Shown here: piece by piece, positions 8,201 to 38,373 of the stretch
How the letters are laid out: each line of letters begins with the position of its first letter
Numbering within the stretch: position 1 is the stretch's first letter
Virus record (IMG/VR): IMGVR_UViG_3300048919_000265
Direction: 5' to 3' (one strand)
From: a virus
DNA: 64,000 nucleotides
Position numbers and translations under genes: made by a program
The notes under the pieces: generated by a model
What the model was told of the DNA's origin: nothing
The model's database searches: none
Seen by the model: only the letters and a program-made list of their open reading frames with translations

Positions 8201-8218
8201 CCCTACAACTCCCTTAGC

Positions 8219-9297: not shown

Positions 9298-9429
9298 CTA
9301 TACAGCCCTAAAGGCGCGTATAGCAGATACAACCATAACAATACCTACAGAATAAACCAACCTATCTTCTTTGAAACATATAATAACAGCAACCAAACAA
9401 ATTACCATAACTCCAACATGAAATCTCAT
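9298..9429 (-). CDS. Small 43-aa membrane protein
   Basis: Read manually: GGAGG SD, MRFHVGVMVICLVAVIICFKEDRLVYSVGIVMVVSAIRAFRAV. Confidence 0.4.
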   Translation of the reverse strand: MRFHVGVMVICLVAVIICFKEDRLVYSVGIVMVVSAIRAFRAV

Positions 9430-9446
9430 TAGACCTCCGAAATAAA

Positions 9447-9481
9447 TAGGTGGTTGAGCTAACTTTCAGCTCAACCACCTA
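9447..9481. other. Intergenic stem-loop (14-bp stem)
   Basis: taggtggttgagct-aactttc-agctcaaccaccta. Confidence 0.7.
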
Positions 9482-9485
9482 AATG

Positions 9486-14614: not shown

Positions 14615-15337
14615 TTAAACTATTTCACCATTTCGATTGAGTAAATTTCGCTCAACTTCCAGTGCATCTTTTAAATATTTAGCTAATCCCTTCACATCAT
14701 CATTTCGTAAACAATCGAGATACTCTGCTTTGGTCGCCACATTAATAACAACAGGTGCACAACCTTCATGCAACAACACCCAATTAATCAACAATCTTCC
14801 TGTCCTACCATTCCCATCAGGGTAAGGATGTACCTTTTCAAACTCCAAATGAAACCATGCGACAGCCTCTAGCAAATCCTCTTCTGACTCAACGTACTTT
14901 AATCTACCATCCATCAGATTACTGATCAAATACTGCATCTCTGTAGGAACTTTTTCCGGTGCAGTAGTTAGTCGACTACCCACAATATTCTGAGTTCTTT
15001 TAAATGCACCAGCTTCTCCGTCAATATTTGTCATAACTAGTTTATGAATATTATGAATAACCGATATACTCAAGTCCAACTTACACACTTCCAATACGTA
15101 ATTCCAAGCTGCTTTTAGATTCTGCAGTTCATTAACTTCTCGTAAAGAAACTGGTCTACTGAACACTGGCACAAATCCATCCACTAACAACACTTGTGTT
15201 TCGGATTCTGTAACAGTATTTCCTTCAATAGCAGCCGAACTATGAACAGATCTCACCAAGAAGCTTTCTAAATACTGCGTATCTTCTTTAATCAGTTCGA
15301 CCAAATCTTTTTTATTAAACGCATCCATAGGTATCAC
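14615..15337 (-). CDS. fic: Fic-domain protein (AMPylase-type)
   Basis: Canonical HPYPDGNGRTGR motif; SAAIEGN inhibitory-helix-like motif near the N-terminus. Confidence 0.92.
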   Translation of the reverse strand: MIPMDAFNKKDLVELIKEDTQYLESFLVRSVHSSAAIEGNTVTESETQVLLVDGFVPVFSRPVSLREVNELQNLKAAWNYVLEVCKLDLSISVIHNIHKLVMTNIDGEAGAFKRTQNIVGSRLTTAPEKVPTEMQYLISNLMDGRLKYVESEEDLLEAVAWFHLEFEKVHPYPDGNGRTGRLLINWVLLHEGCAPVVINVATKAEYLDCLRNDDVKGLAKYLKDALEVERNLLNRNGEIV

Positions 15338-15518
15338 GCATATTCCTCCCTAATGATCCTGCATTAACTCTATAGTAACGAGGAAACTTCCCCATCACTA
15401 ACAATTAACGCATATCTTGCTGAACCCAATCTCTTACCCTTACTTCCAATTCACAGTTTAATAATCTGGAACTTTGTAAAGTTCAGGTTGTAGACTTTCG
15501 CAGAAATCTCTATTTATG

Positions 15519-15908
15519 TTACCATAAACGGGGATGGACATCTTTACAAGTCAGCTCCTCACCTTCGAATCTTAACCACACATAGTCATCATATAAAACT
15601 CCATGTGTCTTTTTAACAATTTCGTTCGGATTATACTCTTCTAATCCTAATGCTTTTAACAATTTGTCGGCATGATGTCTCGATCGAGGAAAACAGCGTG
15701 ATTCAAGGTAATCAACAACATCAAACAAGGTTACAGTATCTTTAGTAGGAAACGGCAGAAACACAGGATCAACCGCTTTATCTTGCCAAACATTAACCTT
15801 TTTATTAGTGTAATCTACTTCTACCCGAGCAATAACATCATCTTTCTCCAAGACCTCGAATTTAAGCGAAGGAGGTTTAAAAAAGTTCATGCCTTTCACA
15901 CCTACCAC
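15519..15908 (-). CDS. Stand-alone HipA N-terminal-like (HipS-like) protein
   Basis: YLESRCFPRSR...LLKALGLEEYNP.EIVKKTHG...DDYVWL; paralogous to 38374-38907. Confidence 0.6.
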   Translation of the reverse strand: MVGVKGMNFFKPPSLKFEVLEKDDVIARVEVDYTNKKVNVWQDKAVDPVFLPFPTKDTVTLFDVVDYLESRCFPRSRHHADKLLKALGLEEYNPNEIVKKTHGVLYDDYVWLRFEGEELTCKDVHPRLW

Positions 15909-15914
15909 TCCTTT

Positions 15915-16364
15915 CTAACTTAGTTCCCTTTCTAACCTTGAAACAAAATTCCATACAAACTTTTGACAAATCTGCAACATATGGTAAGACTTCCATCCCC
16001 ACAGTTTTTCCATTGGCCTAAAGTCCCTTTTAAGATTAACTGAAGCTAGCTTTTCCTCCGAGATTATGAATAGCTGCTGGGTGTAGTACGAATTATACAA
16101 CAAGTGATCGTCCATGAAATACAAGATTTGTGAACCCAGTACTGCGTAATCTTTCCAGCCTTTCTGAATATACTCACCTAATCTCTCATCCAATAACCAC
16201 ATAAAATATTTTGTACATTCCACTCTCTCGTTCCATGACTCTGAAAAAACCACATCCAACTCCTGTGAACTTGAAACCCTATCCTCACCCAACCTAGCCA
16301 GATAGGAATCACAGTATTGAGTAAGATACTTCAGTATCTGTTCATCACTCAAAAGTTTCCCCAT
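15915..16364 (-). CDS. Hypothetical protein
   Basis: Co-oriented, overlaps the upstream gene by 1 nt. Confidence 0.6.
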   Translation of the reverse strand: MGKLLSDEQILKYLTQYCDSYLARLGEDRVSSSQELDVVFSESWNERVECTKYFMWLLDERLGEYIQKGWKDYAVLGSQILYFMDDHLLYNSYYTQQLFIISEEKLASVNLKRDFRPMEKLWGWKSYHMLQICQKFVWNFVSRLERELS

Positions 16365-16972
16365 TAATCGAACATCCTATCATTCCCAGAATCATATCTT
16401 TCTCCTAACACACTATGGTATGAGCTATCTATTACATAATAGCTTCCACCATATCCGTCCCTAAACTTAGGATAATACCTCTTAAAATCTTCTCGACTCA
16501 CTAACCCTTTCTGAAACAACATCTTTACATCATCAATATCCTTATCCAATCCCCTGCCTAATTTAACTAAAGCGACATCCAACGCTCCCAATGAAAAAAC
16601 AGTAACTTTTCTAAACTCCGCAATAACATTCAATCTGTCCTTGTAATCAGGCATTAAAAACAATATCCCCTCATTCACTACTTGAATGGCATATTTAGAC
16701 GACGCCAAAGACTGCACTGTATTTAAGATATCTATGTCTTCAGTCTTCCTGTCTAGATTATAACCCAATATCAAAGAGGAAGCACCTATCACAATAATCT
16801 CAGACCTAATCCCTATCTCTCGACTAAACTGCTCTAACCGATTAAGGATCTCTTCTTTATCTAGATCCTTGCTGTGATTGAAAAAATTCATCTCATTCAT
16901 CGAGTATAACACCCTTTCGATCTGAAATAAGACAACACTGTGGATCACTAAGTATAATGCGCATCTAAACAC
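16364..16972 (-). CDS. DUF6036-like nucleotidyltransferase (true start probably downstream, MNEMNFF)
   Basis: IIVIGASSL...RKTEDIDIL (G[GA]...DxD) and KL.R...KDIDD motifs. Confidence 0.7.
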   Translation of the reverse strand: MFRCALYLVIHSVVLFQIERVLYSMNEMNFFNHSKDLDKEEILNRLEQFSREIGIRSEIIVIGASSLILGYNLDRKTEDIDILNTVQSLASSKYAIQVVNEGILFLMPDYKDRLNVIAEFRKVTVFSLGALDVALVKLGRGLDKDIDDVKMLFQKGLVSREDFKRYYPKFRDGYGGSYYVIDSSYHSVLGERYDSGNDRMFD

Positions 16973-19629: not shown

Positions 19630-21891
19630 TTATCCTACGTCTCTATTCCTTTTAAGAAATCCCAATAACTTCGGCTTCTTTTTCCTTTCCAAAATCTGTT
19701 CATCTGGAGCGACCACATTAATCAATCCCGTGAATCCCTGAACTACTTGCTGAGAACCTTCCGGTGAACTAGCAAAAACTGTTCCCTGCCATTCCGCCTT
19801 ATTTACTTCCGATCTAGAAAAAGTAGGTATAACAGTAGCTACTTGCTCATCCCTCCAAATATAATACTCCCTTTGGGCCTTGTTAAGATGATATTGCGGA
19901 TTCTCTACAAATCCTGGAGGATTAGAAATAAGGAAATCTATTTCATCCAAAACTTCCTTAGTACGTGTATAACTATCAACCATATTAACAATAAATTTGA
20001 CTTTATCCGGCCAGCGACCCATATGCTCTTTAAATCTCATTAATGGTTCCATAATCTTAGCAACATTTGGTTGCAAAACAAGCCAGATCTCTGCACAACT
20101 ATTGTAAACTTCAAATAGAGATTCATCACTCCAGTTAGTAGAAACATCAACAAAAGTGTATTGCGCAACTCGAGTTGCGTTCATATAATGGCTCATTTTC
20201 TCAGCAGTCGAATTCAAACCAATTTGATTGCGCTCGAGTGGAAACCAAAACAATTCTCCGTCCTGCCAATAATCTCTTCCATTAACAGCAGCCTCTTCTT
20301 CTACTCTAAACGCAATACTTCTCCAATTATCCGGATGCTTTACATCCCCATAAAGATAATTGTACAAAACAGGTGTATTACCTAGGTGTTCTACTACGCT
20401 ACTACTGATGCCGCTTGCTGCCAGTACAGTAGCCATATTGCTAGCAATAAACGTAGCCCCGGTTCCAGAAAACAAACTGGCAACTACAATAGTCTTAGCA
20501 TCCACACCTTCGTACTTCCCAATAGGAGGGTTATATCTTTCTAACTTAGATAATTTTAAAGCATCCGCTTCCAACTCTTTTTCTAACTGTGCATTAATTT
20601 CTGCCCTTTTACGTTCAATTTCCTGGTCAACAGGCTCGGTTGGTTCTTGGTATTCTTCAAAGATATTAATGCCCAAGGAGTCTTCTATAATCAGAGGTGT
20701 AATCTCTTTTGTTTCTTCTGCCTGCTGCACTACAAGCGCTGTTTCTATCTCTGCTACAGGCTGATTTTCTTCCAGCCTGGCAGATTCCTCCTCCGAGCTC
20801 ACAGATAGTTCTTTATTCTGCTCAGAATCCTGATCTACTTCAATCGAAGTAAAGACAACTTCTTCATCCGCAAGAGACTCAACCTCCTCTTCAACAGCCA
20901 TAGAAGTGACTTCTATTTCGACCCGCTCAACAATATCTGCTTCGTCTTTAACGTCTAGTGCAGATTCTTTTGTTACAACCAACTCTGGTTCCACTTCAAG
21001 AGGCAACGTATTTGTTGATAATCGCTGTTGCATGAGTTCGTTTGCTAAGTCGTCTGAATCCGTTTCAACTTGCGGAGAATTGCCTGGATCTACAGTTGCA
21101 GTCTCCTCAACCACAGCAGTTTCATAACTCGCTTCAAAAAATTCTACCTTATCTTCAGAAGAAACAACGTCAATTGCTTCTTCCTCAGAAACTACGGCTA
21201 CCTGCTCAGACGAGAGATTAACTATTTCAATGTCAGAACTTTCTTCCTTCAATTCTGTTTCGTGCTCCAATACTTTCTTTGGTACTATTTCTTGTTCCGC
21301 AAGAAATTCGGTATTTACATCTTCAGGCCCGCTGCTAACAGATTCAGCAACTACTTCTGGGAACACAGACTCAGGTTCAACTTCTGTCTGTGCCTCCCGT
21401 ACAACTTCTTCTTCAATCACTTCCGGAGACTGAACTTCTGGCTCTTCAATAGCAGTATTATCATGCGCTACTTCTTCTGGCATTGGATTAAGTCTTTTAT
21501 TATCTTTACCCAACGCGGAAAGCAATACATCCATTGTTAAGTTAGGAGAATAAAATAATTCTCCTTCACTTAAATTAAAGTCTTCTGTACTGGTATTAAT
21601 TGTAATAATGCTCTCATCAATCAGAAATACCACACTGTCGGCTTCTGAATTCAGTTCATTAATAGTTGCTTGTAACATGTTTAACTCTTGCAGTTCTTTG
21701 CCCGCTGTTAATGCCGAAGGTATAACTAAAACCCTGTCAAAACCCGAAGAAGCTTCTGCTGTGTTCTTCCAACCAGCAAAATCTTCAACTTTATAAAAAT
21801 ATCCAATCACGTCATGTCCATTACTAGCAATTAGTTTTAATACGGCCTGACTAATTTTACCCACAAAAATAATTCTCAATATTTTCACCAT
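19630..21891 (-). CDS. TadZ/CpaE-like protein: receiver-like N-terminus, long Glu-rich linker, degenerate MinD/ParA ATPase domain
   Basis: TIVVASLFSGTGATFIASNMA P-loop, YTFVDVS, KFIVNMVD; ~330 aa E/V/S-rich low-complexity centre. Confidence 0.7.
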   Translation of the reverse strand: MVKILRIIFVGKISQAVLKLIASNGHDVIGYFYKVEDFAGWKNTAEASSGFDRVLVIPSALTAGKELQELNMLQATINELNSEADSVVFLIDESIITINTSTEDFNLSEGELFYSPNLTMDVLLSALGKDNKRLNPMPEEVAHDNTAIEEPEVQSPEVIEEEVVREAQTEVEPESVFPEVVAESVSSGPEDVNTEFLAEQEIVPKKVLEHETELKEESSDIEIVNLSSEQVAVVSEEEAIDVVSSEDKVEFFEASYETAVVEETATVDPGNSPQVETDSDDLANELMQQRLSTNTLPLEVEPELVVTKESALDVKDEADIVERVEIEVTSMAVEEEVESLADEEVVFTSIEVDQDSEQNKELSVSSEEESARLEENQPVAEIETALVVQQAEETKEITPLIIEDSLGINIFEEYQEPTEPVDQEIERKRAEINAQLEKELEADALKLSKLERYNPPIGKYEGVDAKTIVVASLFSGTGATFIASNMATVLAASGISSSVVEHLGNTPVLYNYLYGDVKHPDNWRSIAFRVEEEAAVNGRDYWQDGELFWFPLERNQIGLNSTAEKMSHYMNATRVAQYTFVDVSTNWSDESLFEVYNSCAEIWLVLQPNVAKIMEPLMRFKEHMGRWPDKVKFIVNMVDSYTRTKEVLDEIDFLISNPPGFVENPQYHLNKAQREYYIWRDEQVATVIPTFSRSEVNKAEWQGTVFASSPEGSQQVVQGFTGLINVVAPDEQILERKKKPKLLGFLKRNRDVG

Positions 21892-21918: not shown

Positions 21919-22980
21919 CTAATTACCTATTTTTATGCTAGGCGGAGTTGGAGAAGTCTTATCCACTCTCACATATATGACAGTTTCAGAACCAACATTG
22001 CCTGCATTATCCACACTTCTTCCATAAATTGTGCTTTGACCTTCCGCAACTACCGTAAAGGAACCGCTATATGTTGTCCAACTCTTGGTATTTGGCCCGT
22101 CAATTCTATACTGACTATAGCTTGTACCAGAAACTACATCCGCACCATGCGTCATACTAATACTAACATCTTGATTACTAAAGGCTACATTAGGATTTAC
22201 GGTAAATACAGGCGAGCTCGGTCCTGTCCTATCGATTTTTACCTGCACTGTTGTAACATCACTGTAGTTCTTATTATAGTCCACTGCTCGTGCGCTTATT
22301 GTTGTGATCCCTTCATTAACTACTGTCAGAGAACTGCCTGAAATCCAATCCTGAGAAGTAGCACCATCTAATTTATACTCGTACCCTTTCACAGCACCAT
22401 TATCTGTACTTCCCCCTATAGTTGCTGTTACATTATTTCTGGTAGCAGAAGTTGTGGACGGAGTTATGACAGGTGCTGTTGGCTTTGTATAATCATATGC
22501 ATAAGGACCTTCTGATATTTGCCCATAAACACCGTTAAACGTAGAATTACCCTGATCTGATACATATTTTATATACCTAACATATTTTATCTCTGGGTGA
22601 ATAGATTTTGAAGGTCCTCCTGTCATCGCACCTGCATTTCCTGAGCCTGGTTGCGAAAAATCATAGGTACTGCTTTGATACCAGCTAACTCCATCCGATG
22701 AAAAGTATTCAGTAACAGTTGTGGGAACTTCCCAACCATTATTACGCGGAGTATAAATACCAAAATAATTATAGGAGCTGAACTCATCCCTGTCATACCC
22801 CGGGGCTCCAAAATCTATGATAGCTACATTCCCATTAACATTACCTACATTAAATTTTTGACCTAGCGTATAAGCTTCCACTTTGCCACTGGAGTAAACC
22901 CCCGCCACCAAGAGGACTATTACAAAAATCACAGTCGCTAGGGTCTTAGACCTCATTTTAGCAAGAGACTTAAACTTCAT
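21919..22980 (-). CDS. Secreted protein: unique N-domain, two Ig-like repeats, dangling C-terminal strand (putative tip subunit)
   Basis: Signal peptide ending KVEA; repeats with ARAVDYNKN and GRSVDNAGN; ends DKTSPTPPSIKIGN. Confidence 0.8.
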   Translation of the reverse strand: MKFKSLAKMRSKTLATVIFVIVLLVAGVYSSGKVEAYTLGQKFNVGNVNGNVAIIDFGAPGYDRDEFSSYNYFGIYTPRNNGWEVPTTVTEYFSSDGVSWYQSSTYDFSQPGSGNAGAMTGGPSKSIHPEIKYVRYIKYVSDQGNSTFNGVYGQISEGPYAYDYTKPTAPVITPSTTSATRNNVTATIGGSTDNGAVKGYEYKLDGATSQDWISGSSLTVVNEGITTISARAVDYNKNYSDVTTVQVKIDRTGPSSPVFTVNPNVAFSNQDVSISMTHGADVVSGTSYSQYRIDGPNTKSWTTYSGSFTVVAEGQSTIYGRSVDNAGNVGSETVIYVRVDKTSPTPPSIKIGN

Positions 22981-22990
22981 ATGAACCTCC

Positions 22991-23234
22991 TTATCCTCCT
23001 ATCTTGATTGTGGGACTTGTAGGAGCAGTTTTATCAATATTAAAGAACATGAACATTTCTCCATCAGTATTGGTTATGCTGCCAAATTCCTAGTAAATAG
23101 CACCAACACTGCCCAAATATAATTAGTACCCTGCACTATAATCTTCTAGATGTACAGAGAACACATTGTTACCTAGAATTATTACGCCTACTACAAACAC
23201 CAAGGCAGCTTTTATACCACTCAATTTGCTTCAA
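22991..23234 (-). pseudogene. Degenerate paralog of the tip gene
   Basis: GGAGG SD, TTG, 1-nt shift into signal-like LSGIKAALVFVVGVIILG, two in-frame stops, ends IDKTAPTSPTIKIGG*. Confidence 0.65.
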
Positions 23235-23250
23235 ATTTTTAAACACCTCC

Positions 23251-23272
23251 TGTGAGGGAGAGACCCCTCACA
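23251..23272. other. Stem-loop after the stalk gene
   Basis: tgtgaggg-agagac-ccctcaca. Confidence 0.55.
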
Positions 23273-23276
23273 TTCT

Positions 23277-26200
23277 CTACTTCCCATCCTTATCAATCAT
23301 TTCTATCATTCTGTAGATGAGTGCAGCCGACTCCGCTCTCGTTAAACTATTTTTAGGTCCAAAACTTCCATCTGGATACCCACCAACAAGACCAACACTG
23401 GACGCGTAATCCACATCTTCTTTTGCCCATCCAATGATTCTATCGGCATCGGTGAAATCAGATGATTTACTACCTGCGGTGACTCCTTGTTCCTTAAGCA
23501 CGTTAACTAACATTTTAGAGGCTTGTTCTCGATTAATATCAATATTCGGACGAAATTCTATGTTGCTAAATCCTTTAGCAACTTTAGTTGCTAATGCAGC
23601 CTTGAGTTCTTCCGTGTACCAAGCTCCTCTATTGATATCCTTAAAAGTCAAGGCGACCGATTCATCCGGCGTAGCATCAATAGCTCTAACAATCAAAGCT
23701 GCAAATTCCATCCGAGTCACAGGTCTATCTGGCTCAAAAATATTCGGAGCTGTACCCTTTAATATACCTTGGGTTGCTAGCTTGTTAATCTCATCCCGAC
23801 TAAAAGTTTCATCAATATCAGAGAATTGATCTGATAAAGAATCTTTCTTAGTAGTTTCTGATTTAACTTCTTCAACCACTTCTGGTGTTGGTATTGTCTC
23901 TACTTTAGGAGGAATTATAGTTCCTCCATCAGCACCATCTCCAGAATTTTTACGTTCCTTATCCGTTTTAATAGTCAAACATGCAGAAGTAATACTCAGA
24001 CCCGACACATTTTTACCCCTAACTTCATACTGGTATTCCGTATCAGAAATTAATTCCTTATCTACATACTTAAACTGGGAACTCGGTATCGCAGCTATTT
24101 CTTTTCCTCCGCGATAAATTATATATTCAGTAGCTCCCAAGCTTCTAACTTCAGAAAGATCTAAGGTCACATCATTTTTTGTTGCGGTGCCTTTTAAAAG
24201 AATTGGTTTGCTTGGCAAAGTCAAAACCTTTATTGGCGTAGCTTCAGATTTTGTTCCCTGTTGGTTCTCCACAACTAATTCCCAATCATACTGTGTTCCA
24301 GGAGTTAACCCTTCTACAGTCGCTGGACTTTCTTTACCTCTCCAAACTTCCTTACCGTCTTTATCAACAATCACGTAATCCTTAGCACCATCAACTGTCG
24401 GGAACTCCACAACCACATTATCATCTTTAGGAGTTACTTTAACATCAGAGCTCTTCACAGATTCTGTTGCCGTTAAGATGGTCAAAGAAGTGGTCTCACC
24501 CTCACCTGTGCTATTCACAGGTAAAACTGTGATATTGTAAGTGGAAGCAGACATAAGATCCTCAACAGTAAAAATCTTTTGCCATGCCATACTACGTAAA
24601 ACTTCCTTACCATTAACATACACAACATATTGATCAACTAAGTTACTTCCAAAATTTACTGCAATAGAAGCAGAATGCGCAGACAATTTGTCAACAGATA
24701 ATTGAGGAGAACTAGGTTTAGTCAAGATGGAGTGTTCTACCTTACCAGATTGAACATCTTTATCATTAGTAGACCAAATAACTAAGTTATAAGGAGTACC
24801 CCCAGACAATCCTTTGATTCTAGTTTGTGTGTCTGTTCCTGCATATAAGATATTTCCACCACGATCAGAAATATAATATTTTTCAGCCCCCTTGACAGCA
24901 TCCCATTTCAAATCGCTGTAGGTTATATCGGTAACTGAACTAATTTTGTCAATTGGAGACGTTTTAGTAGTCCAATTAATAATTGATTCCTTACCTACAC
25001 CTGAACTATTTTCCCCTCTAACAATAATGTCATAATTAGTTCCGGCTTCTAGTCCTTGAATCGGCGCTGAAGGATCAGAACTACTTTCTATAATTGCAGT
25101 GTCTTTAACTTTAATTGTATATTTTGTAACAGTATCATCTTTATCCCACACTAAATTCAAACTAGTAGTATCCGTGTTGTCCACTGCTAGGTTATTAACA
25201 GCGTGTGGTTTCGTAACAAATTTACCTTCAACCCATTGGCTGCTACCAGAGCTATTAGAAGCCTTTATTTTGTAGATATAATTCTTGCTACCAACCAATC
25301 CCGCTACCTTAATTTCTCCCGTATTCCCTGCGTATTCTTTACCATCAACTTCAATAGTGTATCCTGTAGCTCCATTGACCAAGTCCCATTTGATTACGGC
25401 AGAATCTTCTTCAACTTCCTCTACTTTAACACTTGCAGGCTCGGCAGGTATTGTTATAAAGCTTACAGGAGTAAGCTCGCCTTCCCCACTCTCATTTTTA
25501 GCTGCAATTGTTAAATCATATCTCTCACCTGGCTTCAGGTCTTTCAATACCCAACTAGTATCGTTAGTACTTGAAACTTCTGATCCATTTCGAATAACAT
25601 ATTCTGAAGCACCCTTTACACCATTCCACTTCAAGGTAGCTCCTGTTTGACTAATACCTTCAACAGTAATACCACTAATTGCTGCAGGCAATGTTCTTAT
25701 TCCTCGTAAATGACTATACGCACCTAGTCCAGTGTCATTAACTGCACCAACACTATAGTCATAAGCTGTACCAGAACTAAGCCCCTCATCCAAGAAATTC
25801 AATACATTAGCGGAGGATATCTGATTTCCATCTCGTAACAGATTATACTTTAGGGCAGTACTAACAGAATTCCAGCTTAATAATATTTTATCAGTGAAGA
25901 CATTAACACTTTTAAATTCTCCTGGATTATCAGGCAGAGACAAGAATCTTACTCCCTTACTAATTCCTTCCCCAGTCGAGTTAATAGCCGAAACATTAAC
26001 ATCATAATTCGTGCCCGGAGTCATACCAGAAAACGGATAAGTTGTATCAACAGTAGTATCGTCTACAATCACTTCTCCACTATCTGCTTTTCTAACAAAT
26101 ATATGATAAGCAGTCGCACCTTCCACCTTACTCACGTATATAAATCCAGAATTATAATTTTGATCAACTTTCTCTACTCTAATATTTTCAGGAGCTGCTG

Positions 26201-28892
26201 GTAGAGTGAGCAAATGACCATCATCATAGCTGCTACCTACATGATTCATAGCAGTAACACGAACACTATATTGTCGTCCTCCAGCTAATCCAGAAAATTT
26301 GACAGACGATATCGGAAAATCCACCACTTCTTCTTTACCTGTACCGATAACTTCTATTTTGTATTTCCATCCATCAGTATAAGTTCCTGCCTGAGGCAAA
26401 TCCCATTCTGCCGTGAAATTATCCTCGCCTATTCCAGTAGCTCTAATATTCTTAGGTGCCTCTGGGACATTTTGCAACTTAATAGCTCCAGAAGTGACCT
26501 GTGTAGTATTGCCTGCTTTATCTATGGCTTTTAAATGGACATACCAGACTCCTTCAGATTCTATAGATAAATTATCACTATTAACGCTATCCCAAGAAGT
26601 TGGAATTTGGCTACTGTCAGTAATTCTATAAAAAACCTTGTCAACTCCAGAACCTGTATCGGCTACAGCCACTTCAACATTCGCTTTGCTTGGTGACCAA
26701 TCTCTACTGTCTGGAGTTAATTTAATTGTTGGAGCCGATTTATCTACATACACAGTTATAGTGGTTACTTCACTAATATTACCTACACTGTCAATAGCTC
26801 GGGCACTTAAAGTATGGGTACCATCCGCAGTAACAACTCCACTATTTCCATCTACAAACTCCCCACCATCAACCGAATATTGATATCTAACAGGATTAAG
26901 GTCTGTACTACCGTCTATTTTAAATTCTACATCCTTAGAAACAAACTCAGTATCACTAAGTTTTATGCCCGGCACAGTAGGAGCTGTCAAATCAATCATA
27001 GCTGTAGCATAACTAGGTTGGCTCACGTTGCCTGCATTATCTATCGTACGGAAAGCTACAGAGGTAACTCCCTCCTTAGATACTTCCAAAGGTTGATCAT
27101 AGGCAATCCAATCTCCACCTTCAATAGAGTACTCGTTATGATTGACCCCACTGGCTTCGTCTTTACCTTCCCCCGTGAGAGCTATGGAGACCGGAACTTT
27201 GTTAGTCCAATCTTTTTCGGAGGCTGCTACTAGTGGAGAATTAGGAGCAGTTCTATCTATCTTCACATCCACTTTCGCAGATTCGCTGAAATTACCTGCA
27301 TTATCCTCCGCCCTAACTAAGAGGTTCGTTACGCCCTCTCTTGTTATTTCAATGGGATTTAAATAATCCTTCCAACTAGTACCATCTTCTGAGTATTTCA
27401 ATCTTTTAAATCCACTTAACTTATCCAAACTACTAAGAGCTGTAACCGTTACATCTTTATTAGTCCATGAGGCAGCAGTACTATAAACCTCTGGCACATC
27501 CGGTGCTGTTTTATCTATTTTGGCCAGCACCTGGGCCTCTGGTCCAGCATTACCAACCTTATCAACTGAACGAGCTTTAATCACTATTTCCCCTTCGGTA
27601 TCAACAGGGAAAGGCTGATCATAAGCTTTCCACTCAGATCCATTAATACTATACTCTGTTTCTTTAATGCCTGACTCCTCATCTTTGCCAGCCGTGATTA
27701 TAACTGTAGCGACATCTTTGGTCCAATCTACTGGGTTAATCGCAAGCTCCGGAGCAGTAGGTGCCTTCTTGTCGATCTTAAAAGTTACTTGCGAAACTTC
27801 ACCATTGTTACCTACGTTATCTACAGATCTTGATTTAACAATATGAATTCCCTCATCCGTAAACTCTAACGCACCCTGATAAGTTTTCCATTCGCCATCG
27901 TCTAAAGACCACTCAGTCTTTTCGACACCACTTAAGGCATCTACCCCCGGTATTATTTCCAACCCCACCTTATCAGATACCCATTCGCTAGAAGACAGAT
28001 TCATGACAGTCGCACTTGGACCGCTATGATCAATAGTGAATTCCTCTTCTTTAATGTCGCTATAATTGCCGGCATTATCTACACTTCTAAAATAAATTTT
28101 ATTAGTGCCCTCTGTTTGATATTTGACTGGATTAACATAATTGTTCCAAACCACACCATCATAAGAAAACTCCGATCTATTAATACCACTATCTAAGTCA
28201 AACCCTTTATTAATCGTAAAAGTCACTGCATCAGCCCAACCTGTATTATCCCTTAAAACTGATGGAGCAGATGGTTTAAGTTTATCAATCTTATAAGTCA
28301 TGCTACTAATGACACTCATATTACCAGCATTATCTACGGTTCTAGCCTCCACTAGTGCCGATCCGGAAGCGTTGATTATAAACGGGGCAGTATAGGTCTG
28401 CCAAACTCCAGCATCTATTCTGTACTCAACTCTAGCACTACCCGAAAGAGTATCTGCACCAGCAACAAGTTCTACTGATACATCTGTATTACGATAATTG
28501 CTATTAGTATCTTTAAATGTTGGAGCATTTGGAGGTGTTCTATCAATTCTCACAGCAGATGAAGACAATGGACTTAAATTACCAGCGTTATCAACTGTAT
28601 ATGCTTCAATATTGGTCACACCTTCAGCCGTAACATTAAATGTACCACCATAAGCTCCTAATCCTTTGTTTGTTGCACCAGTTAATCTATAATCTATTCG
28701 ATTAACGCCAGAATATGAGTCCGTACCGGCTACTATACTAACAGGAACATCAGCATCATTAGTCCACCCAACCCCATTGTAAGTAGAAGCAGCCGAAGCC
28801 TGATTTTCCTTTATTAATAATTCAGCTGGGAAATAACTTAGCAACATTGTCACAGCTACAAGCAGCTTTAGAAACTTCTTTTTCTTTTCCAA
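23277..28892 (-). CDS. 1871-aa S-layer-anchored stalk protein: signal peptide, 9 Ig-like repeats, ~10 FN3 repeats, 3 SLH
   Basis: AAGGAGG SD then TTG at 28892; nine [VIE]D[NKS][AV]GN repeats; FN3 repeats (PEAPKN, PAAPEN, PDNPGE...); C-terminal SLH (VTRMEFA, INREQAS, LTRAESA). Confidence 0.9.
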   Translation of the reverse strand: MEKKKKFLKLLVAVTMLLSYFPAELLIKENQASAASTYNGVGWTNDADVPVSIVAGTDSYSGVNRIDYRLTGATNKGLGAYGGTFNVTAEGVTNIEAYTVDNAGNLSPLSSSAVRIDRTPPNAPTFKDTNSNYRNTDVSVELVAGADTLSGSARVEYRIDAGVWQTYTAPFIINASGSALVEARTVDNAGNMSVISSMTYKIDKLKPSAPSVLRDNTGWADAVTFTINKGFDLDSGINRSEFSYDGVVWNNYVNPVKYQTEGTNKIYFRSVDNAGNYSDIKEEEFTIDHSGPSATVMNLSSSEWVSDKVGLEIIPGVDALSGVEKTEWSLDDGEWKTYQGALEFTDEGIHIVKSRSVDNVGNNGEVSQVTFKIDKKAPTAPELAINPVDWTKDVATVIITAGKDEESGIKETEYSINGSEWKAYDQPFPVDTEGEIVIKARSVDKVGNAGPEAQVLAKIDKTAPDVPEVYSTAASWTNKDVTVTALSSLDKLSGFKRLKYSEDGTSWKDYLNPIEITREGVTNLLVRAEDNAGNFSESAKVDVKIDRTAPNSPLVAASEKDWTNKVPVSIALTGEGKDEASGVNHNEYSIEGGDWIAYDQPLEVSKEGVTSVAFRTIDNAGNVSQPSYATAMIDLTAPTVPGIKLSDTEFVSKDVEFKIDGSTDLNPVRYQYSVDGGEFVDGNSGVVTADGTHTLSARAIDSVGNISEVTTITVYVDKSAPTIKLTPDSRDWSPSKANVEVAVADTGSGVDKVFYRITDSSQIPTSWDSVNSDNLSIESEGVWYVHLKAIDKAGNTTQVTSGAIKLQNVPEAPKNIRATGIGEDNFTAEWDLPQAGTYTDGWKYKIEVIGTGKEEVVDFPISSVKFSGLAGGRQYSVRVTAMNHVGSSYDDGHLLTLPAAPENIRVEKVDQNYNSGFIYVSKVEGATAYHIFVRKADSGEVIVDDTTVDTTYPFSGMTPGTNYDVNVSAINSTGEGISKGVRFLSLPDNPGEFKSVNVFTDKILLSWNSVSTALKYNLLRDGNQISSANVLNFLDEGLSSGTAYDYSVGAVNDTGLGAYSHLRGIRTLPAAISGITVEGISQTGATLKWNGVKGASEYVIRNGSEVSSTNDTSWVLKDLKPGERYDLTIAAKNESGEGELTPVSFITIPAEPASVKVEEVEEDSAVIKWDLVNGATGYTIEVDGKEYAGNTGEIKVAGLVGSKNYIYKIKASNSSGSSQWVEGKFVTKPHAVNNLAVDNTDTTSLNLVWDKDDTVTKYTIKVKDTAIIESSSDPSAPIQGLEAGTNYDIIVRGENSSGVGKESIINWTTKTSPIDKISSVTDITYSDLKWDAVKGAEKYYISDRGGNILYAGTDTQTRIKGLSGGTPYNLVIWSTNDKDVQSGKVEHSILTKPSSPQLSVDKLSAHSASIAVNFGSNLVDQYVVYVNGKEVLRSMAWQKIFTVEDLMSASTYNITVLPVNSTGEGETTSLTILTATESVKSSDVKVTPKDDNVVVEFPTVDGAKDYVIVDKDGKEVWRGKESPATVEGLTPGTQYDWELVVENQQGTKSEATPIKVLTLPSKPILLKGTATKNDVTLDLSEVRSLGATEYIIYRGGKEIAAIPSSQFKYVDKELISDTEYQYEVRGKNVSGLSITSACLTIKTDKERKNSGDGADGGTIIPPKVETIPTPEVVEEVKSETTKKDSLSDQFSDIDETFSRDEINKLATQGILKGTAPNIFEPDRPVTRMEFAALIVRAIDATPDESVALTFKDINRGAWYTEELKAALATKVAKGFSNIEFRPNIDINREQASKMLVNVLKEQGVTAGSKSSDFTDADRIIGWAKEDVDYASSVGLVGGYPDGSFGPKNSLTRAESAALIYRMIEMIDKDGK

Positions 28893-29041
28893 ATTTAAAT
28901 CCTCCTTACTGTCATTAATTTTAAATATAATTATGTATCTACGATTAGGATTGCACACTTGATGTCATTAACCGTAATCAACCCCTCCAGTTCTTTACAG
29001 TTATTTTACTCCTAGCATCATCCCTTTTCGATTTGGTTAAT

Positions 29042-29090
29042 AAAAAGACGGTGGGTGAATAGGATGTGTTTCTCCTATTCACCCACCGTC
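29042..29090 (-). terminator. Strong intrinsic terminator separating the cargo array from the surface locus
   Basis: 18-bp perfect stem gacggtgggtgaatagga/tcctattcacccaccgtc plus T5 on the minus strand. Confidence 0.85.
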
Positions 29091-31108: not shown

Positions 31109-31516
31109 TTACTTAACTTCAAACTTGACTTTAGTTCCGTCGGGCAAATCTTTCACCCTTTGTGCCACCCACGATCCTGCACCTCTATTATCCTTTGGTG
31201 AAATATATTTAACACTGGCTTCTTTTCCTCCCTCACTACACATGGCCATCGGCCATTCATCACGATCATACCCTTTCTTGATCGGCACATTTTGCAACGA
31301 GACTTTTCTGTGTTTCTCAGCGTTACGTCGGTCAAGAGTGCAAACATTACTTAAGCCTGCGTTTATAGCAGACTTAATATGTTGTGCTGTTTGAGGATAC
31401 TTATTGCTAGGAAAAGGTAAAACCACTTCTTCTGCTTTCTGATGATTAATAATACCTAATGTAATCAGACACCCAAACAACAATACAATTATTGTTCTTA
31501 ATCGTATCACTATCAT
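31109..31516 (-). CDS. nucB: NucA/NucB-family secreted deoxyribonuclease
   Basis: N-terminal TM; YPQTAQHI, GYDRDEWPMAMC.EGG, DNRGAGSW motifs. Confidence 0.9.
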   Translation of the reverse strand: MIVIRLRTIIVLLFGCLITLGIINHQKAEEVVLPFPSNKYPQTAQHIKSAINAGLSNVCTLDRRNAEKHRKVSLQNVPIKKGYDRDEWPMAMCSEGGKEASVKYISPKDNRGAGSWVAQRVKDLPDGTKVKFEVK

Positions 31517-31517
31517 A

Positions 31518-31889
31518 CTAATTCAGTCCAATGATTCTAAACGCAAACATTTTTCTATCCTTATTAGGATCGTTTTCTCCCAAAACCAAAGGTTTTACTG
31601 AAGTAACCTCAACAAATATCTCCCTTCCTGTATAACTTCCATTAGGGCCTACAAACTCGCGTAATCTAACCCAATCACCCGTTTTTAAATCCTTCATAGA
31701 AGTACCGCAATTTCTAATACCTTGCGATATTTCAGAAAAATCATCTTCAATAGCATTGATTTTGACAACCTTAATTTTATTAAGCAAAGTGTATGCACGT
31801 AAACTTTGCTTGGCCTCTTCCGACTCGATTACATAATTACTAGGTAATACCATTTCTGCATAATTAAAATTTAAACGCATCCTGATCAA
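31518..31889 (-). CDS. DUF3850/ASCH-like protein
   Basis: DLKTGDWVRLREF....YTGREIFVEVTSV. Confidence 0.7.
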   Translation of the reverse strand: MIRMRLNFNYAEMVLPSNYVIESEEAKQSLRAYTLLNKIKVVKINAIEDDFSEISQGIRNCGTSMKDLKTGDWVRLREFVGPNGSYTGREIFVEVTSVKPLVLGENDPNKDRKMFAFRIIGLN

Positions 31890-31922
31890 TCCTTCACTAT
31901 ATTATGATATGATTCCATATAC

Positions 31923-32123
31923 TTAAAGAGAATCTATAACAAACTTAACAACTGCCTCATACAAAATATTATGAGTTTGATCCCACAAACATCCGTCTTT
32001 GTACTCCAGATAAAGACGTTTTAAGTCACAATTTTATTCGGTGCACTCAATCCTCAAATCATAAATAACCAATTTAATTCCTACAAACAAAAGAGTTGTA
32101 ATAACCAAACAACTAACAATCAT
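31923..32123 (-). pseudogene. Membrane protein remnant with an internal stop
   Basis: 67 codons with one in-frame TAA; N-terminal TM resembles that of the upstream gene. Confidence 0.35.
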
Positions 32124-32124
32124 A

Positions 32125-32487
32125 CTAAGCATCCATATGACGCTTACGATTATGTGTATAACCTAAAACTAGTTCGTGCAAAGCAAAGAAATCTTCATCA
32201 GAAATAGACTCCTTAAAATACTTTGTGCTCAACCTAATCAAGTCTTCTTGTTCAAATTTGTCAATATCTCCAGATCGAGCCACGTTAAACAAAAGTTTAG
32301 TAATAATTCTCTTTTCATTCTGCGACAACTTCGTGTACTCCCTATAATTGCTAAATTTTTCAGCAATTCGGTATTCCAATAAAAAGAATCTCCACTTAAT
32401 TATACGTGAGGTAATCTTGATCCCCGTGTATATTATACTTGTTATTATCAAACTGATTATAAGTATATTCAATGACGGCAAACTCAT
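32125..32487 (-). CDS. Membrane-anchored hypothetical protein
   Basis: N-terminal TM. Confidence 0.6.
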   Translation of the reverse strand: MSLPSLNILIISLIITSIIYTGIKITSRIIKWRFFLLEYRIAEKFSNYREYTKLSQNEKRIITKLLFNVARSGDIDKFEQEDLIRLSTKYFKESISDEDFFALHELVLGYTHNRKRHMDA

Positions 32488-32834
32488 TTCCCTTTCTCCA
32501 CAATCAATTGCTCTTTATCATATACAGAAAGCTTGTAGTCTTTTGAAGTCAATAAATTTGTCAACTCTGACCAATCAGCAGCGAATGTAAATGCAATAGA
32601 CCAAAGCCAGTCCTGTTCATACAATACCCGCGGATCTTCTAAATCTATGATATCACCTTCACACTTAATTAAATGTTTGGAGACGAAAACCGGAGAAACT
32701 TCAAAAACTCTCCACAAAACTTCCTCTATATCATCGTTATATCTAGAAGTACAGAAAATTCTCGTCCCTTCTTCGAGGGACATAACGATATAATACTTAT
32801 TTTCTAAACTTATCCCATTCATATAATCTAACAC
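32484..32834 (-). CDS. Hypothetical protein
   Basis: Overlapping-stop packing. Confidence 0.55.
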   Translation of the reverse strand: MLDYMNGISLENKYYIVMSLEEGTRIFCTSRYNDDIEEVLWRVFEVSPVFVSKHLIKCEGDIIDLEDPRVLYEQDWLWSIAFTFAADWSELTNLLTSKDYKLSVYDKEQLIVEKGK

Positions 32835-33201
32835 CTTTCACTTTAAGATTCATTAAACACTCTTGCAAATACTCTTCGTCGTGCTCTGCGTACACCTTAC
32901 CTTCAAGTTTGGTAAACAATTCTAAATCAAAAATATGTAAGTCCCACGGGTCACTTCTATCTCCGCGAAACAAAGGATCAAGCCAACGATAATCTGTCCA
33001 AGCATGACCGCGTCTCTTTTTCTCCTTCATTACCTCTATATGATATCTAGATAACAAAGCAGGGTTGTGCAGGAACACATAATTAACTGTACTATGAGGC
33101 CTATTCCAACCTAACCCCCGCAAAGCACAGCATTCACGGTGTTGCCCATTAAGTTGCATTCCCGGTAAATGAGGTAATAAATCCTGATGCCACAGTCTCA
33201 T
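32797..33201 (-). CDS. TIGR02328 family / pyrimidine-dimer DNA glycosylase-like protein
   Basis: MRLWH..L...LP..QL.GQHRECCALRG.GW...HSTVNYVF signature. Confidence 0.85.
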   Translation of the reverse strand: MRLWHQDLLPHLPGMQLNGQHRECCALRGLGWNRPHSTVNYVFLHNPALLSRYHIEVMKEKKRRGHAWTDYRWLDPLFRGDRSDPWDLHIFDLELFTKLEGKVYAEHDEEYLQECLMNLKVKGVRLYEWDKFRK

Positions 33202-33222
33202 AGTACACGCCCCCCAAATTTA

Positions 33223-33582
33223 TCATTTCAAAACAGCAGCAAGTTTCTCTTTATCCACCTTAGATAAGCTTTCCCTCACACAATCAGATAGTAGTATGAA
33301 GTCAGAATCCGTTATAGTACCTTCAATATATGCTTTACATAAGTGCTTAATATTAACGGGTGCCACCCCGACCCTCTCGAAATAAAGCTCGACTCCTATT
33401 AACACCCGCTCTGCTATCCTTTTTTCTATTGTGGATAACTCAACAAAACTCCTATGTTTATCCATATCTAAGGCGAAAATATAATACCTTTTCGGGGAAT
33501 TTATGATAACTTCAGTTATGATTTTGCCTATTAACACAATAGCAGCGGCAAACGCCACACATATCAAAATCACAGTTGACAA
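33223..33582 (-). CDS. Membrane-anchored hypothetical protein
   Basis: N-terminal TM. Confidence 0.6.
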   Translation of the reverse strand: MSTVILICVAFAAAIVLIGKIITEVIINSPKRYYIFALDMDKHRSFVELSTIEKRIAERVLIGVELYFERVGVAPVNIKHLCKAYIEGTITDSDFILLSDCVRESLSKVDKEKLAAVLK

Positions 33583-33612
33583 GACATATCACCCTCAATC
33601 CGGATTAGTTGT

Positions 33613-34056
33613 CTAAATTCCTCGCATAAGCTGGGATACTCGACATTGCGACACCCCTAATGCGTTTCCATACTGTCTTTGCGTAAGACCTGGTCTCTCG
33701 AGCATTATCTGTTTTAATTTATTAATTAACTCTTCGGACCTAACGCTCTTTGAAGGCACGTCCGATTTGGTCTCTGTAAAAGCTGTTTCAAAACAATCAC
33801 CAGCTTTTATTTCTCCAATACATCTAGAACAGAGGAAACTGTCTTTAAAATAAGTTAAATTATCTAACGATTCACACATTTTGCAAGAAACACCAGTGTA
33901 TTTCCTTAAAACTAGCATATTTTTATCCATATCGATAAATATTTCCATAGCGTCCCCACCTTCGATATCCATCAAGGTTCTCATCTCTTTGGGGAGAACA
34001 ATTCTCCCCAAGTTATCCAATGCTCGTACTATTCCTGTACTTTTCAAAACACTCAC
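33613..34056 (-). CDS. abrB: AbrB-family transition-state regulator with Zn-ribbon and extra C-terminal HTH
   Basis: KSTGIVRALDNLGRIVLPKEMR; CKMC...CSRC; LTQRQYGNALGVSQCRVSQL. Confidence 0.85.
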   Translation of the reverse strand: MSVLKSTGIVRALDNLGRIVLPKEMRTLMDIEGGDAMEIFIDMDKNMLVLRKYTGVSCKMCESLDNLTYFKDSFLCSRCIGEIKAGDCFETAFTETKSDVPSKSVRSEELINKLKQIMLERPGLTQRQYGNALGVSQCRVSQLMRGI

Positions 34057-34146
34057 CCTTTGCTAATTAATTTCTAAAAATATTCCGACAGTCCGAAGTT
34101 GCTTATTCTGTTAACTAATCCATCATTCCTAGCAATACTTGACACC

Positions 34147-34542
34147 TTAGTTCATACTCCACCCTCTATTTAATTGCATCTCAAATCTATCTTCTTCCCT
34201 TGGTAAATATTCACTAAGATTTGTCCAATCCCAATCAAGATAATTAACAACAAACATTTTTATCACAGCAGCCATGGTTTCGTTATCATAAGATAACCCG
34301 AGTTCCTTCGTCAACAGATGGAATGCTCTTGGTTCAATACAGTGATCCCGCCAGCCATCACGAAGTGTTTCGTTTTCCCACGAGACTGTTTCAACTTTAC
34401 CATTAGGATGTAAGACAAATAAGTCATACCACTTCAGATAGTTTTCCACTGTAAGCATAGAAGTATATGCTCTTTGTGTTACCAATTCAATACCACGATC
34501 ACTAACTTTTACGTTAGGATTATTCGACCCTGCATTACTCAT
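34147..34542 (-). CDS. Hypothetical protein
   Basis: Co-oriented ORF. Confidence 0.65.
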   Translation of the reverse strand: MSNAGSNNPNVKVSDRGIELVTQRAYTSMLTVENYLKWYDLFVLHPNGKVETVSWENETLRDGWRDHCIEPRAFHLLTKELGLSYDNETMAAVIKMFVVNYLDWDWTNLSEYLPREEDRFEMQLNRGWSMN

Positions 34543-34554
34543 CTTTATCCCCCC

Positions 34555-34899
34555 TCATCCATACTCATTGATTTCGTAGCCAGCATCTCGCAACCAATCT
34601 GCAACCAAATGCCTGTGACAAAATTTATCTTTACCTTCCCAGCAAATGAAAGTTGCATCATCACCATACTTGTCGATCAGTACTTTAGCATCCAACTCAC
34701 GTAGTTGCTTTTTATAAAAATAGCGGTACTCTTCTTCACCTATTTTACCCTTTTTATAATCCCATAATAATTGTGAAGATGGCATCAACTCACCGCAAAC
34801 TTTACCATTAAAACCAGGAACCAAAGTTCTTGCTATGCACACTAGGTTCAGGCCGGGTGGCATAGTTTTTACCTTTGAAAAATAAGAAGTATGTAACAT
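34555..34899 (-). CDS. DUF488-family protein
   Basis: HTSYFS, LMPS..LL..YK, FICWE....CHRHLVADWL. Confidence 0.8.
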   Translation of the reverse strand: MLHTSYFSKVKTMPPGLNLVCIARTLVPGFNGKVCGELMPSSQLLWDYKKGKIGEEEYRYFYKKQLRELDAKVLIDKYGDDATFICWEGKDKFCHRHLVADWLRDAGYEINEYG

Positions 34900-34961
34900 G
34901 TTTCAACCGCCCTTATTTAACTTTAATTGTACAAATTTATATTGAATATTTACTCCAATAT

Positions 34962-35195
34962 TTACATCCATACGTCACCAGCTGTATTGTGAACCTTACA
35001 AGGAACTTCTTTGTAGCCTTTTTGAGAAACCAGGTATTCCTCAATCTGAGAAATACGCATTTCACTACCAAGCTTATCTATAGCCTCCTGCACATCCACA
35101 CCAAAATCAGATTCGGATTTGTCATCATGAGTAAATATTGTGTCCGTACCATTATATTCACAAGTTGACCAGTAAATAACCTTAAACAAATTCAT
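34962..35195 (-). CDS. Hypothetical protein
   Basis: GGAGG SD, co-oriented. Confidence 0.55.
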   Translation of the reverse strand: MNLFKVIYWSTCEYNGTDTIFTHDDKSESDFGVDVQEAIDKLGSEMRISQIEEYLVSQKGYKEVPCKVHNTAGDVWM

Positions 35196-35214
35196 TAAAT
35201 CCCTCCCTCTTTAT

Positions 35215-35673
35215 TTACTTGTTAAAGTTCCTGAAAAGTTCATCCACGGAAGTGTTCAAATAATTTGCCGCTAATTCCGCCCTTTCAGGATACCTAGGTT
35301 TAGCTCCCTCAAATAACCATCTAGTAATTGTTCTTTGGCTTACTCCAACAGCTACTGCTAAATCTTTAGTAGAACATTTACTAGCGATCATAGCATCATA
35401 TAAGTTCTGATTAGTGGGTACCCAACTTACTAATGTTCGTATTGTTATCCTATCAGGACATTTACCGTTCAAAAGCACTTTACTGCAATGAGGGCATAAA
35501 CCCTTCTTGATTCTTTTACTTTTCATAGTTTCCCTATCCCGTAATAAGATTCCTCTACACTGACCACATAAATAAGTAGTAGATGCAACTTTACACCTCG
35601 CACATAATCCTTGTTTTCTACGCGACCGTCTTAGTCTCCGCATAGATTCATCAGAAGTAGGCATCGCACCCAC
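35215..35673 (-). CDS. Cys-rich Zn-finger-like protein with a C-terminal XRE HTH
   Basis: CARC, CGQC, CPHC; KDLAVAVGVSQRTITRW. Confidence 0.7.
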   Translation of the reverse strand: MGAMPTSDESMRRLRRSRRKQGLCARCKVASTTYLCGQCRGILLRDRETMKSKRIKKGLCPHCSKVLLNGKCPDRITIRTLVSWVPTNQNLYDAMIASKCSTKDLAVAVGVSQRTITRWLFEGAKPRYPERAELAANYLNTSVDELFRNFNK

Positions 35674-35734
35674 ACTCCCCCCTAATTTAAACTAGTTGAC
35701 AATTAAACTGAACTACCCCACGACAAAATGTGTT

Positions 35735-35929
35735 CTATAACGGCCTCATTTTTAAACAATCTGGACAATTAAGAGCAACAGTGTCAGATTGTATTCTTAG
35801 ATAAGGATAAATATTATCCTTATCGCACAGAGCTACACGTTTTTGTGCCTTTTCTAGATCTACAAAATGAATTAATCTGCTAGCTTTACCATACCCATAG
35901 TCATTATATAACTTACCCACAACTGTCAC
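35735..35929 (-). CDS. Small hypothetical protein
   Basis: GTG start, CPDC motif. Confidence 0.45.
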   Translation of the reverse strand: MTVVGKLYNDYGYGKASRLIHFVDLEKAQKRVALCDKDNIYPYLRIQSDTVALNCPDCLKMRPL

Positions 35930-36131
35930 CCCATTTCACTGTTCTCATTTTTTATTCAGCTTAATATAGATTTAATGCCCGCAAATAAAAGGTTTTGAAC
36001 TGCCTCAAATCTTTTTCCAACTCATCACTAAAATTAATACTATAAGGACAAAAGCAATATAAATTCTCCAAGACATTGGAGAATTGTTAACAAACCAGTG
36101 GAAACTTCCAGTATATTGACCTTCAAATAAA

Positions 36132-36503
36132 CTATACATTAAGATCCTCCTGCGTATTCAAAATTTGCTCATTACTATAAATAGCAAAATATCCATCGTG
36201 AGGCTTATAACTTATTAGCTTATCATAAATAATCTTAGCAGTAGGTGGATCACACATAAATTTCCGGGTAACATCTATTCCAATATGCTCGGTAATATAA
36301 GGAGTTTCCAAGGTCGTTACTATTTCATCTGCCACCAATATGGTAACTTTAAACCCTTCGGAAACTAGTCTGTCAAATACTAATTTAGCATCAAATACAT
36401 CACCGGTAGTTGGATCAATCGTCACAAACCCGAGTTTATCCTTATAGACAAAGCAAATAGTTTCCATAATTTCCTCCTTCAGGTGGCTGGTTCCTCCAAC
36501 CAC
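36132..36503 (-). CDS. Hypothetical protein (start probably METICF)
   Basis: GGAGG upstream of the internal ATG. Confidence 0.6.
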   Translation of the reverse strand: MVGGTSHLKEEIMETICFVYKDKLGFVTIDPTTGDVFDAKLVFDRLVSEGFKVTILVADEIVTTLETPYITEHIGIDVTRKFMCDPPTAKIIYDKLISYKPHDGYFAIYSNEQILNTQEDLNV

Positions 36504-38365: not shown

Positions 38366-38373
38366 AATTTAAA

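Follow-up and report, generated by a model that had tools for sequence, protein, structure and literature searches.

A putative two-gene, stalk-and-head adhesin on a large plasmid-like element and its single-chain relatives

The stalk and head genes

We analysed a 64,000-nucleotide stretch of DNA, hereafter the window, from the IMG/VR virus record IMGVR_UViG_3300048919_000265. Two neighbouring genes on its minus strand appear to make up one adhesin system, a giant wall-anchored adhesin that is encoded here in two genes, whereas the only relatives known have it as one chain. The upstream gene (stalk; 23277..28892, 1871 aa) is predicted to encode a signal peptide, nine OmpL47-type immunoglobulin (Ig)-like repeats, ten Fn3 modules, a linker and three SLH domains. 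The downstream gene (head, or tip; 21919..22980, 353 aa) is predicted to encode a signal peptide, a jelly-roll N-domain, two OmpL47 repeats (T1 and T2) and a 13-residue tail. An earlier note, made from the sequence without database searches, had described these genes with their coordinates, their strand and an order placing the tip downstream of the stalk, all of which our open reading frame (ORF) calls reproduced.

The stalk ORF is open over 28958..23277, and its start was placed at a TTG at 28892, 8 nt behind an AAGGAGG ribosome-binding site (RBS), giving a length that agrees with the database copy, P0009. Its signal peptide is of Gram-positive type and ends ...NQASA ahead of AS. The NCBIfam model NF047446 (OmpL47-type beta-barrel domain), which has a curated cut-off of 40 bits, matched the stalk with 439.9 bits in nine stretches and the head repeats with 64.2 bits in two, both above the cut-off; the model spans 68 of the 86 repeat residues and ends at the 'I' of an 'ID' motif. 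Repeat 1 (28542..28790, minus strand) begins at the mature N-terminus, ASTYNGVGW, and repeats 2–9 (26472..28541, minus strand) follow with a period of ~86 aa, each preceded by a proline linker and a short A strand. The ten Fn3 modules (23889..26471, minus strand; PF00041, E 8.8e-51, number by motif count) are separated by a charged linker from the SLH cell-wall anchoring domains at the C-terminus (23280..23831, minus strand), and the earlier reading of three such domains agrees with the Pfam match (PF00395, 92 bits, three stretches). In a Foldseek comparison, the repeats have the tandem Ig/FnIII-like fold known from SiiE, GhpA and Bap, with SiiE (2yn3) matched at E 5e-6 and TMq 0.64. The BIg domains of Salmonella SiiE, Bap and Aureispira GhpA are likewise tandem beta-sandwich repeats joined by short linkers into a rod; those proteins, however, each consist of one chain and use other routes of secretion or anchoring, whereas the locus described here combines an SLH anchor, OmpL47-type repeats and a separate head gene. 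A strong intrinsic terminator 5' of the stalk gene (29047..29090, minus strand; 18-bp stem with ten G-C pairs, then a T run) ends the preceding transcription unit.

The head gene starts at an ATG behind a strong GGAGG RBS. The 353-aa product that had been described as carrying its own signal peptide, an N-domain and two repeats was recovered as such (NF047446 match above the cut-off, signal peptide present), and it would be secreted. As also claimed earlier, it lacks an anchor of its own, SLH (PF00395) and every other anchor family in Pfam being without a match to the head; outside the repeats, no Pfam or NCBIfam family was matched. The AlphaFold2 (AF2) model of the head had a mean predicted local distance difference test (pLDDT) value of 88.9, and all three of its domains were confidently foldable.

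The N-domain of the head (residues 37-166, ~130 residues; 22483..22872, minus strand) is all-beta, with eight strands in an AF2 model built from an alignment of three N-domain sequences (pLDDT 66-89). A single structural match covered it, the galactose-binding-like jelly roll 8ruy_R (VIA-align Z 8.3, root-mean-square deviation 2.5, 98 aa), and comparison with the ESM Atlas pointed to F5/8 type C (discoidin) and CBM32 clusters (feature score 0.84, TM 0.59). By sequence, no Pfam model matched the N-domain even at E 10, the discoidin, F5/8 type C and CBM32 models included. The domain is probably a discoidin/CBM32-like carbohydrate-binding jelly roll on the strength of these model comparisons, and a carbohydrate-binding head is a reasonable lead rather than a result, with sugar binding suggested by fold.

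Beyond T2, the C-terminus of the head reads ...VDKTSPTPPSIKIGN up to the stop codon (longer end stretch VRVDKTSPTPPSIKIGN, likewise followed by the stop). The tail itself, KTSPTPPSIKIGN (21922..21960, minus strand; another excerpt of the tail peptide is DKTSPTPPSIKIGN), comprises the inter-repeat proline linker and six further residues, SIKIGN, where the A strand of a third, missing repeat would stand. It is coil in the AF2 model. A sequence search of the tip against the PDB returned nothing significant.

Between the two genes lies a gap of 296 nt (22981-23276). A 9-bp G+C-rich hairpin stands just 3' of the stalk stop (23251..23272, minus strand; fold -15.1 kcal/mol, z -0.74); it lacks a U tract and is no canonical terminator, and terminator prediction made no call anywhere in the gap. 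Co-transcription of the two genes, stated in the earlier note, is putative. The remainder of the gap is largely occupied by a decayed second head cassette (22991..23234, minus strand), with an AGGAGG RBS, a signal-peptide-like start and two in-frame stops, all in one frame. This relic ends ...FNIDKTAPTSPTIKIGG at its stop (longer excerpt TDGEMFMFFNIDKTAPTSPTIKIGG, also up to the stop), and the stop overlaps the tip RBS. Its last 25 codons share 48% identity with tip residues 328-352 (tblastn E 0.003 over the window, pairwise E 2.6e-6), and head and relic are thus two copies stopping at the same codon. The idea that the relic derives from a copy of the tip by internal deletion was rejected: similarity was significant in the last 25 codons only, and that between the signal peptides was not significant (E 8.6). 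Because one copy has already decayed, head genes appear to turn over at this locus.

Fused and headless relatives

The earlier note had called the N-domain unique, which it is not: three uncharacterised, plasmid-borne proteins carry a relative of it. These are P0081 (1751 aa, from a Paenibacillus polymyxa assembly), P0062 (from a Bacillota metagenome-assembled genome) and P0129 (1569 aa, from an assembly of a public sequencing run). A BLASTP comparison among the stalk homologues matched the N-domain to P0081 with 44% identity (E 4e-27), and P0129 was the sole other relative found by phmmer among 1.84 billion representatives (E 4.2e-11); across the three, N-domain identity was 35-44%. P0081 and P0129 combine the N-domain, T1- and T2-like repeats, further OmpL47 repeats, an Fn3 run and three SLH domains in one chain. 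The P0062 gene call starts too late, and its open frame reaches further upstream, to a GTG, and takes in a signal peptide and the N-domain. Head, repeats, Fn3 and SLH modules are therefore one chain in three of three head relatives and are divided between two genes here. What is new, as judged from these alignments, is that the N-domain has relatives and that in them head and stalk are one protein.

At either end the orthology with the fused proteins is clear; in the middle repeats it is blurred. T1 is 57-58% identical to its counterparts (58% to repeat 1 of P0081), and stalk repeats 8 and 9 share 42% and 40% identity with repeats 7 and 8 of P0081, whereas stalk repeat 1 matches three different homologue repeats at 35-38%. 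Repeat numbers among the homologues are 6, 8 and 11, and a residue-exact mapping of the split was abandoned on account of the shuffling of the middle repeats. Shared between the locus and the three fused proteins are the N-domain, the T1 repeat, the last two OmpL47 repeats, the Fn3 run and the three SLH domains; the locus differs in having two genes (stalk, then head), a new signal peptide on the stalk, a relic between them and a head that stops within the lead-in of a third repeat. Where the tip reads ...VDKTSPTPPSIKIGN and stops, the fused proteins continue after T2 as ...VDTIAPNPPSILVDNTNW and ...IDNIAPDRPNIMVNNINW. The tail end PPSIKIGN aligns with PPSILVDN-TNW and RPNIMVNN-INW of the fused homologues, so that the tip stop falls two residues before the tryptophan position, and this alignment identifies the tail as a linker followed by the opening six residues of a third repeat. 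In line with the earlier statement that the tip stops exactly after the strand, the tail is homologous to the lead-in of the next repeat; only six residues extend past the linker.

Homologues normally fused in one gene, with this locus a unique rearrangement, had been named in the earlier note as an outcome that would speak against its proposal, and all three head relatives are indeed fused. Because they are, the locus is, on present sequences, a derived, order-permuted split of a single-chain adhesin. The split arrangement was seen once, on a single 212-kb root-metagenome contig. In a word-based search of proteins of similar length, the tip gave only weak repeat matches and was a singleton at its own length; the corresponding search for longer proteins with the N-domain came back empty, a result limited by the word-based method, as P0081 exists. 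Neither the stalk N-terminus (single query) in genome contigs nor the N-domain alignment (A4) in genome and metagenome contigs found a relative, and the degenerate DNA pattern D-K-T-x-P-T-x-P-x-I-K-I-G-x-stop had 0 matches in metagenome contigs. The plasmid collection held no near-identical DNA and, at the protein level, matched only repeats within single large Paenibacillus plasmid proteins. Among sequencing runs, the DNA of the locus was found in one root metagenome run only, probably its source, and no RNA run was listed for it. Across the C-termini of 124 long homologues, three end shortly after a linker, and these look like contig-end fragments.

Related Paenibacillus proteins without a head also exist. 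P0038, P0048 and P0052 (2340-2400 aa) have the same architecture of OmpL47 repeats, Fn3 and SLH modules as the stalk and no lectin head; their first repeat, however, retains its lead-in (P-D-M-P-N-I-W-V-N-N-V-S-W), which the stalk described here has lost. The headed P0081 (L003) and P0062 (L008) and the headless P0048 (L005) occupy the same position on related Paenibacillus contigs, downstream of a Cu_amine_oxidN1 gene and a DUF5704 gene. The shared position of headed and headless forms indicates that the N-terminal module varies between otherwise syntenic plasmids.

Repeat junctions and the relation of head to stalk

The earlier note had proposed that the tip C-terminus supplies a beta strand missing from stalk repeat 1, in the manner of donor-strand complementation. 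The motif on which this was built is present in seven of the eight stalk repeat junctions, which read [IV]D-x-x-x-P-x-x-P/T and then a hydrophobic residue, yet it is not the single strand that had been supposed. An alignment of 46 two-repeat segments from the window and five homologous loci was built, and DSSP assignments on the AF2 models of stalk and head show that 'ID' ends the last strand of the preceding repeat, that x-T-x-P-x-x-P is a coil linker, and that only 1-5 beta residues follow the linker, as an edge A strand ('TF' in stalk repeat 2; VITP and VFTVN, four to five residues, in the tip repeats). Where the linker and A strand trail without their domain, as in a stalk fragment at residues 170-184 and in the tip tail, they are modelled as coil.

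Repeat 1 had been described as lacking the strand. The proline linker is indeed missing, the repeat hidden Markov model matches from position 11 only, and the second residue after the P-x-x-P position is Ser, where V/I/L is the rule; on the other side, the mature repeat has eight residues before the conserved W as other repeats do (ASTYNGVG against ELAINPVD), and its predicted fold is complete. The model of stalk residues 57-240 (repeats 1-2) reached a mean pLDDT of 95.2 and a pTM of 0.82, with every core strand of repeat 1 present at a core pLDDT of 95-97, the first ten residues at 75, and Ser58 placed in a beta bridge, so that the A position is a bridge of one to two residues. The need of repeat 1 for an outside strand is contradicted by a model in which it folds completely alone, another of the outcomes that the earlier note had named as speaking against its proposal.

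In chaperone-usher pili, type V pili and TasA, a terminal strand completes the Ig-like domain of a partner subunit; the acceptor is missing a core strand and not stable on its own, the donor is about ten or more residues long, and the subunits polymerise. The head-on-rod logic proposed for the locus resembles that of tip adhesins. Here, in contrast, the acceptor is predicted to be complete, the donor would be the six-residue edge strand S-I-K-I-G-N with only two hydrophobic residues rather than a long alternating segment, the relatives are fused, and there is no chaperone, usher or polymer. Because the tail would add an edge strand and fill no core groove, the donor-strand mechanism of pili and TasA does not fit, and the claim was not sustained.

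The reading we favour, to which we give roughly an even chance, is that the split is the product of a rearrangement and that its two products, a headless wall-anchored rod and a secreted lectin fragment, are not stably joined. Under it, the stalk would be a self-sufficient rod of nine Ig-like and ten Fn3 domains above three SLH anchors, complete from its first domain. The downstream gene would yield a secreted head made of a discoidin-like jelly roll and two repeats, its last 13 residues being the linker and first strand of a repeat no longer present. This head would be let go as a free or loosely associated lectin, the stalk would act as a headless spacer or adhesin, as its natural headless relatives do, and complementation in the pilus sense would most likely not be the joint.

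Several observations weigh against this reading. Repeat 1 is exceptional on sequence grounds: the conserved lead-in is gone, and Ser stands where 95% of 651 internal repeats from 124 homologues have V/I/L and only 2/651 have Ser. At that position the remaining ten repeats of the window are hydrophobic, as are the tails of tip and relic, and in other proteins the lead-in is retained by first repeats that come after a signal peptide or a low-complexity region (P0037, P0069, P0056, P0038, P0048 and P0052). The head ends exactly at the position complementary to the lead-in that repeat 1 has lost; it has no other visible way of staying on the cell, and in its fused relatives the head is displayed at the stalk tip. 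The strongest argument for a role of the tail is its conservation at the protein level while synonymous sites are saturated: over 14 codons of the relic and tip tails pS is 0.84 and pN 0.23, a ratio of 0.28 against 1.08 in the preceding 11 codons, which is not what a useless tail would be expected to show, the figure resting on 14 codons of which two double as the tip RBS. Finally, AF2 confidence is a prediction and not a measurement of stability.

From these same observations arises a possible but less probable account, in which the two genes form a Gram-positive clip-on adhesin: the secreted lectin would dock non-covalently on repeat 1 of the SLH-anchored stalk by edge-strand augmentation. 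The head linker and SIKIGN would occupy the A-strand position of repeat 1, whose own ASTYNG is non-consensus and would be displaceable; a normal tandem junction would be rebuilt non-covalently with the lectin at the rod tip, and heads sharing the tail would be exchangeable, as cassettes behind a stalk that stays constant. The breaks are complementary, the head stopping two residues before the conserved W and the stalk segment up to that W having been replaced, and the Ser of repeat 1 faces tails that keep Ile in both tip and relic. The lead-in retained by other N-terminal first repeats, the low tail ratio with a stop codon common to two head copies, the anchorless head and the fused relatives in which head and stalk belong together all point the same way, as does a head gene with a strong RBS on the stalk strand and no terminator called in between. 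Set against this are a repeat 1 predicted to be complete without a partner, with an A position amounting to an edge strand of 1-5 residues, and six free tail residues where the donor strands of pili and TasA are far longer. The locus is also a singleton on one root-metagenome contig, one of its two heads is already a pseudogene, and the selection signal spans 14 codons partly shared with the tip RBS. A six-residue end strand that clips a head back onto its stalk is an attractive idea, and a putative one.

Rather unlikely, in our judgement, is that the head is a non-functional leftover, in which a rearrangement between repeat-rich paralogues cut a P0081-like gene after its second repeat and left a frame open by chance, with a vestigial tail, that is now going the way of the decayed relic beside it. 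All head relatives are fused, a decayed copy adjoins the head gene, and neither the head nor the split arrangement recurs in the protein, genome-contig and metagenome-contig searches, as this account would have it; yet the gene retains 353 open codons, an intact signal peptide and a strong RBS, all three head domains are confidently foldable, and the truncated end is older than the head/relic duplication and was then conserved in protein as synonymous sites became saturated. It is very improbable that the head genes are recombination cassettes from which unequal crossing-over with stalk repeats on sister plasmids regenerates or swaps fused heads and so varies the head. In its favour, both genes are repeat-rich, homologue repeat numbers differ with the middle repeats shuffled, and the gap contains the relic of a second cassette. 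Against it, the head is not silent, being equipped with an RBS, a start codon and a signal peptide of its own, T2 shares only 36% protein identity with stalk repeat 1 with no long DNA repeats linking them, and a simple crossover in the present gene order would delete the stalk.

Two covalent ways of joining the halves were also considered and rejected: a split intein, there being no family match outside the repeats and no room for an intein, and sortase ligation, the tip having no LPXTG.

Genomic surroundings and significance

The minus strand carries nearly all long ORFs of the window (1-64000), and the GC skew stays negative over its whole length, between -0.2 and -0.38, a pattern that fits a large, unidirectionally organised plasmid- or phage-like replicon. 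Immediately downstream, 27 nt after the tip stop, begins a gene for a 753-aa protein (19630..21891, minus strand), whose middle ~300 residues are strongly acidic, with many E and V. Inspection by eye shows, in the C-terminal part, a degenerate stretch resembling a P-loop, SLFSGTGATFIASN, that recalls ParA/TadZ-type proteins; the protein matched nothing in Pfam or NCBIfam, and its C-terminal half gave nothing significant in the PDB. Further along, an RcpC/CpaB-like gene of a Tad-type pilus locus lies at 7328-8200 (minus strand), and upstream of it, within 7328-13661 on the same strand, are genes for a 970-aa protein without a family match and a 420-aa protein with three N-terminal SLH domains. 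Accessory or defence-type genes occupy 14615-16972 and 31109-39709 (minus strand), among them Fic/DOC, a DUF6036 nucleotidyltransferase, a NucA/NucB DNase, a pyrimidine-dimer glycosylase, a MazE-like antitoxin, a NERD-UvrD helicase and a HipA-like kinase.

Apart from SLH-domain matches, the window shows no synteny with the homologue loci. P0129 (locus L004), on a TubZ-bearing replicon, lies just downstream of Tad-type genes (T2SSE, T2SSF, DUF4320 and an A24 peptidase), and Tad-type pilus genes therefore occur at two of the four known loci of lectin-headed SLH adhesins, that of P0129 and the one described here. Large plasmid-like elements of Bacillota carry the adhesin as a module. Gene context makes a role in mating-pair contact possible, and any function alongside the element's own Tad pilus genes would be read from that context. 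The literature on aggregation-mediated conjugation names S-layer proteins and nothing like a head-stalk adhesin (PMC9673590).

If the head does clip onto the stalk, the locus would represent a natural split Ig-like domain joint outside pili. A mobile element could then give its adhesin a new binding specificity by exchanging a small gene and not one of 6 kb, and the short natural pairing of peptide and domain might find use in protein display on S-layer-bearing bacteria. If the two are not joined, the locus still illustrates clearly the breakage, permutation and decay of adhesin genes rich in repeats on large plasmids of Bacillota, and it also defines a small, uncharacterised family of lectin-headed, SLH-anchored adhesins.

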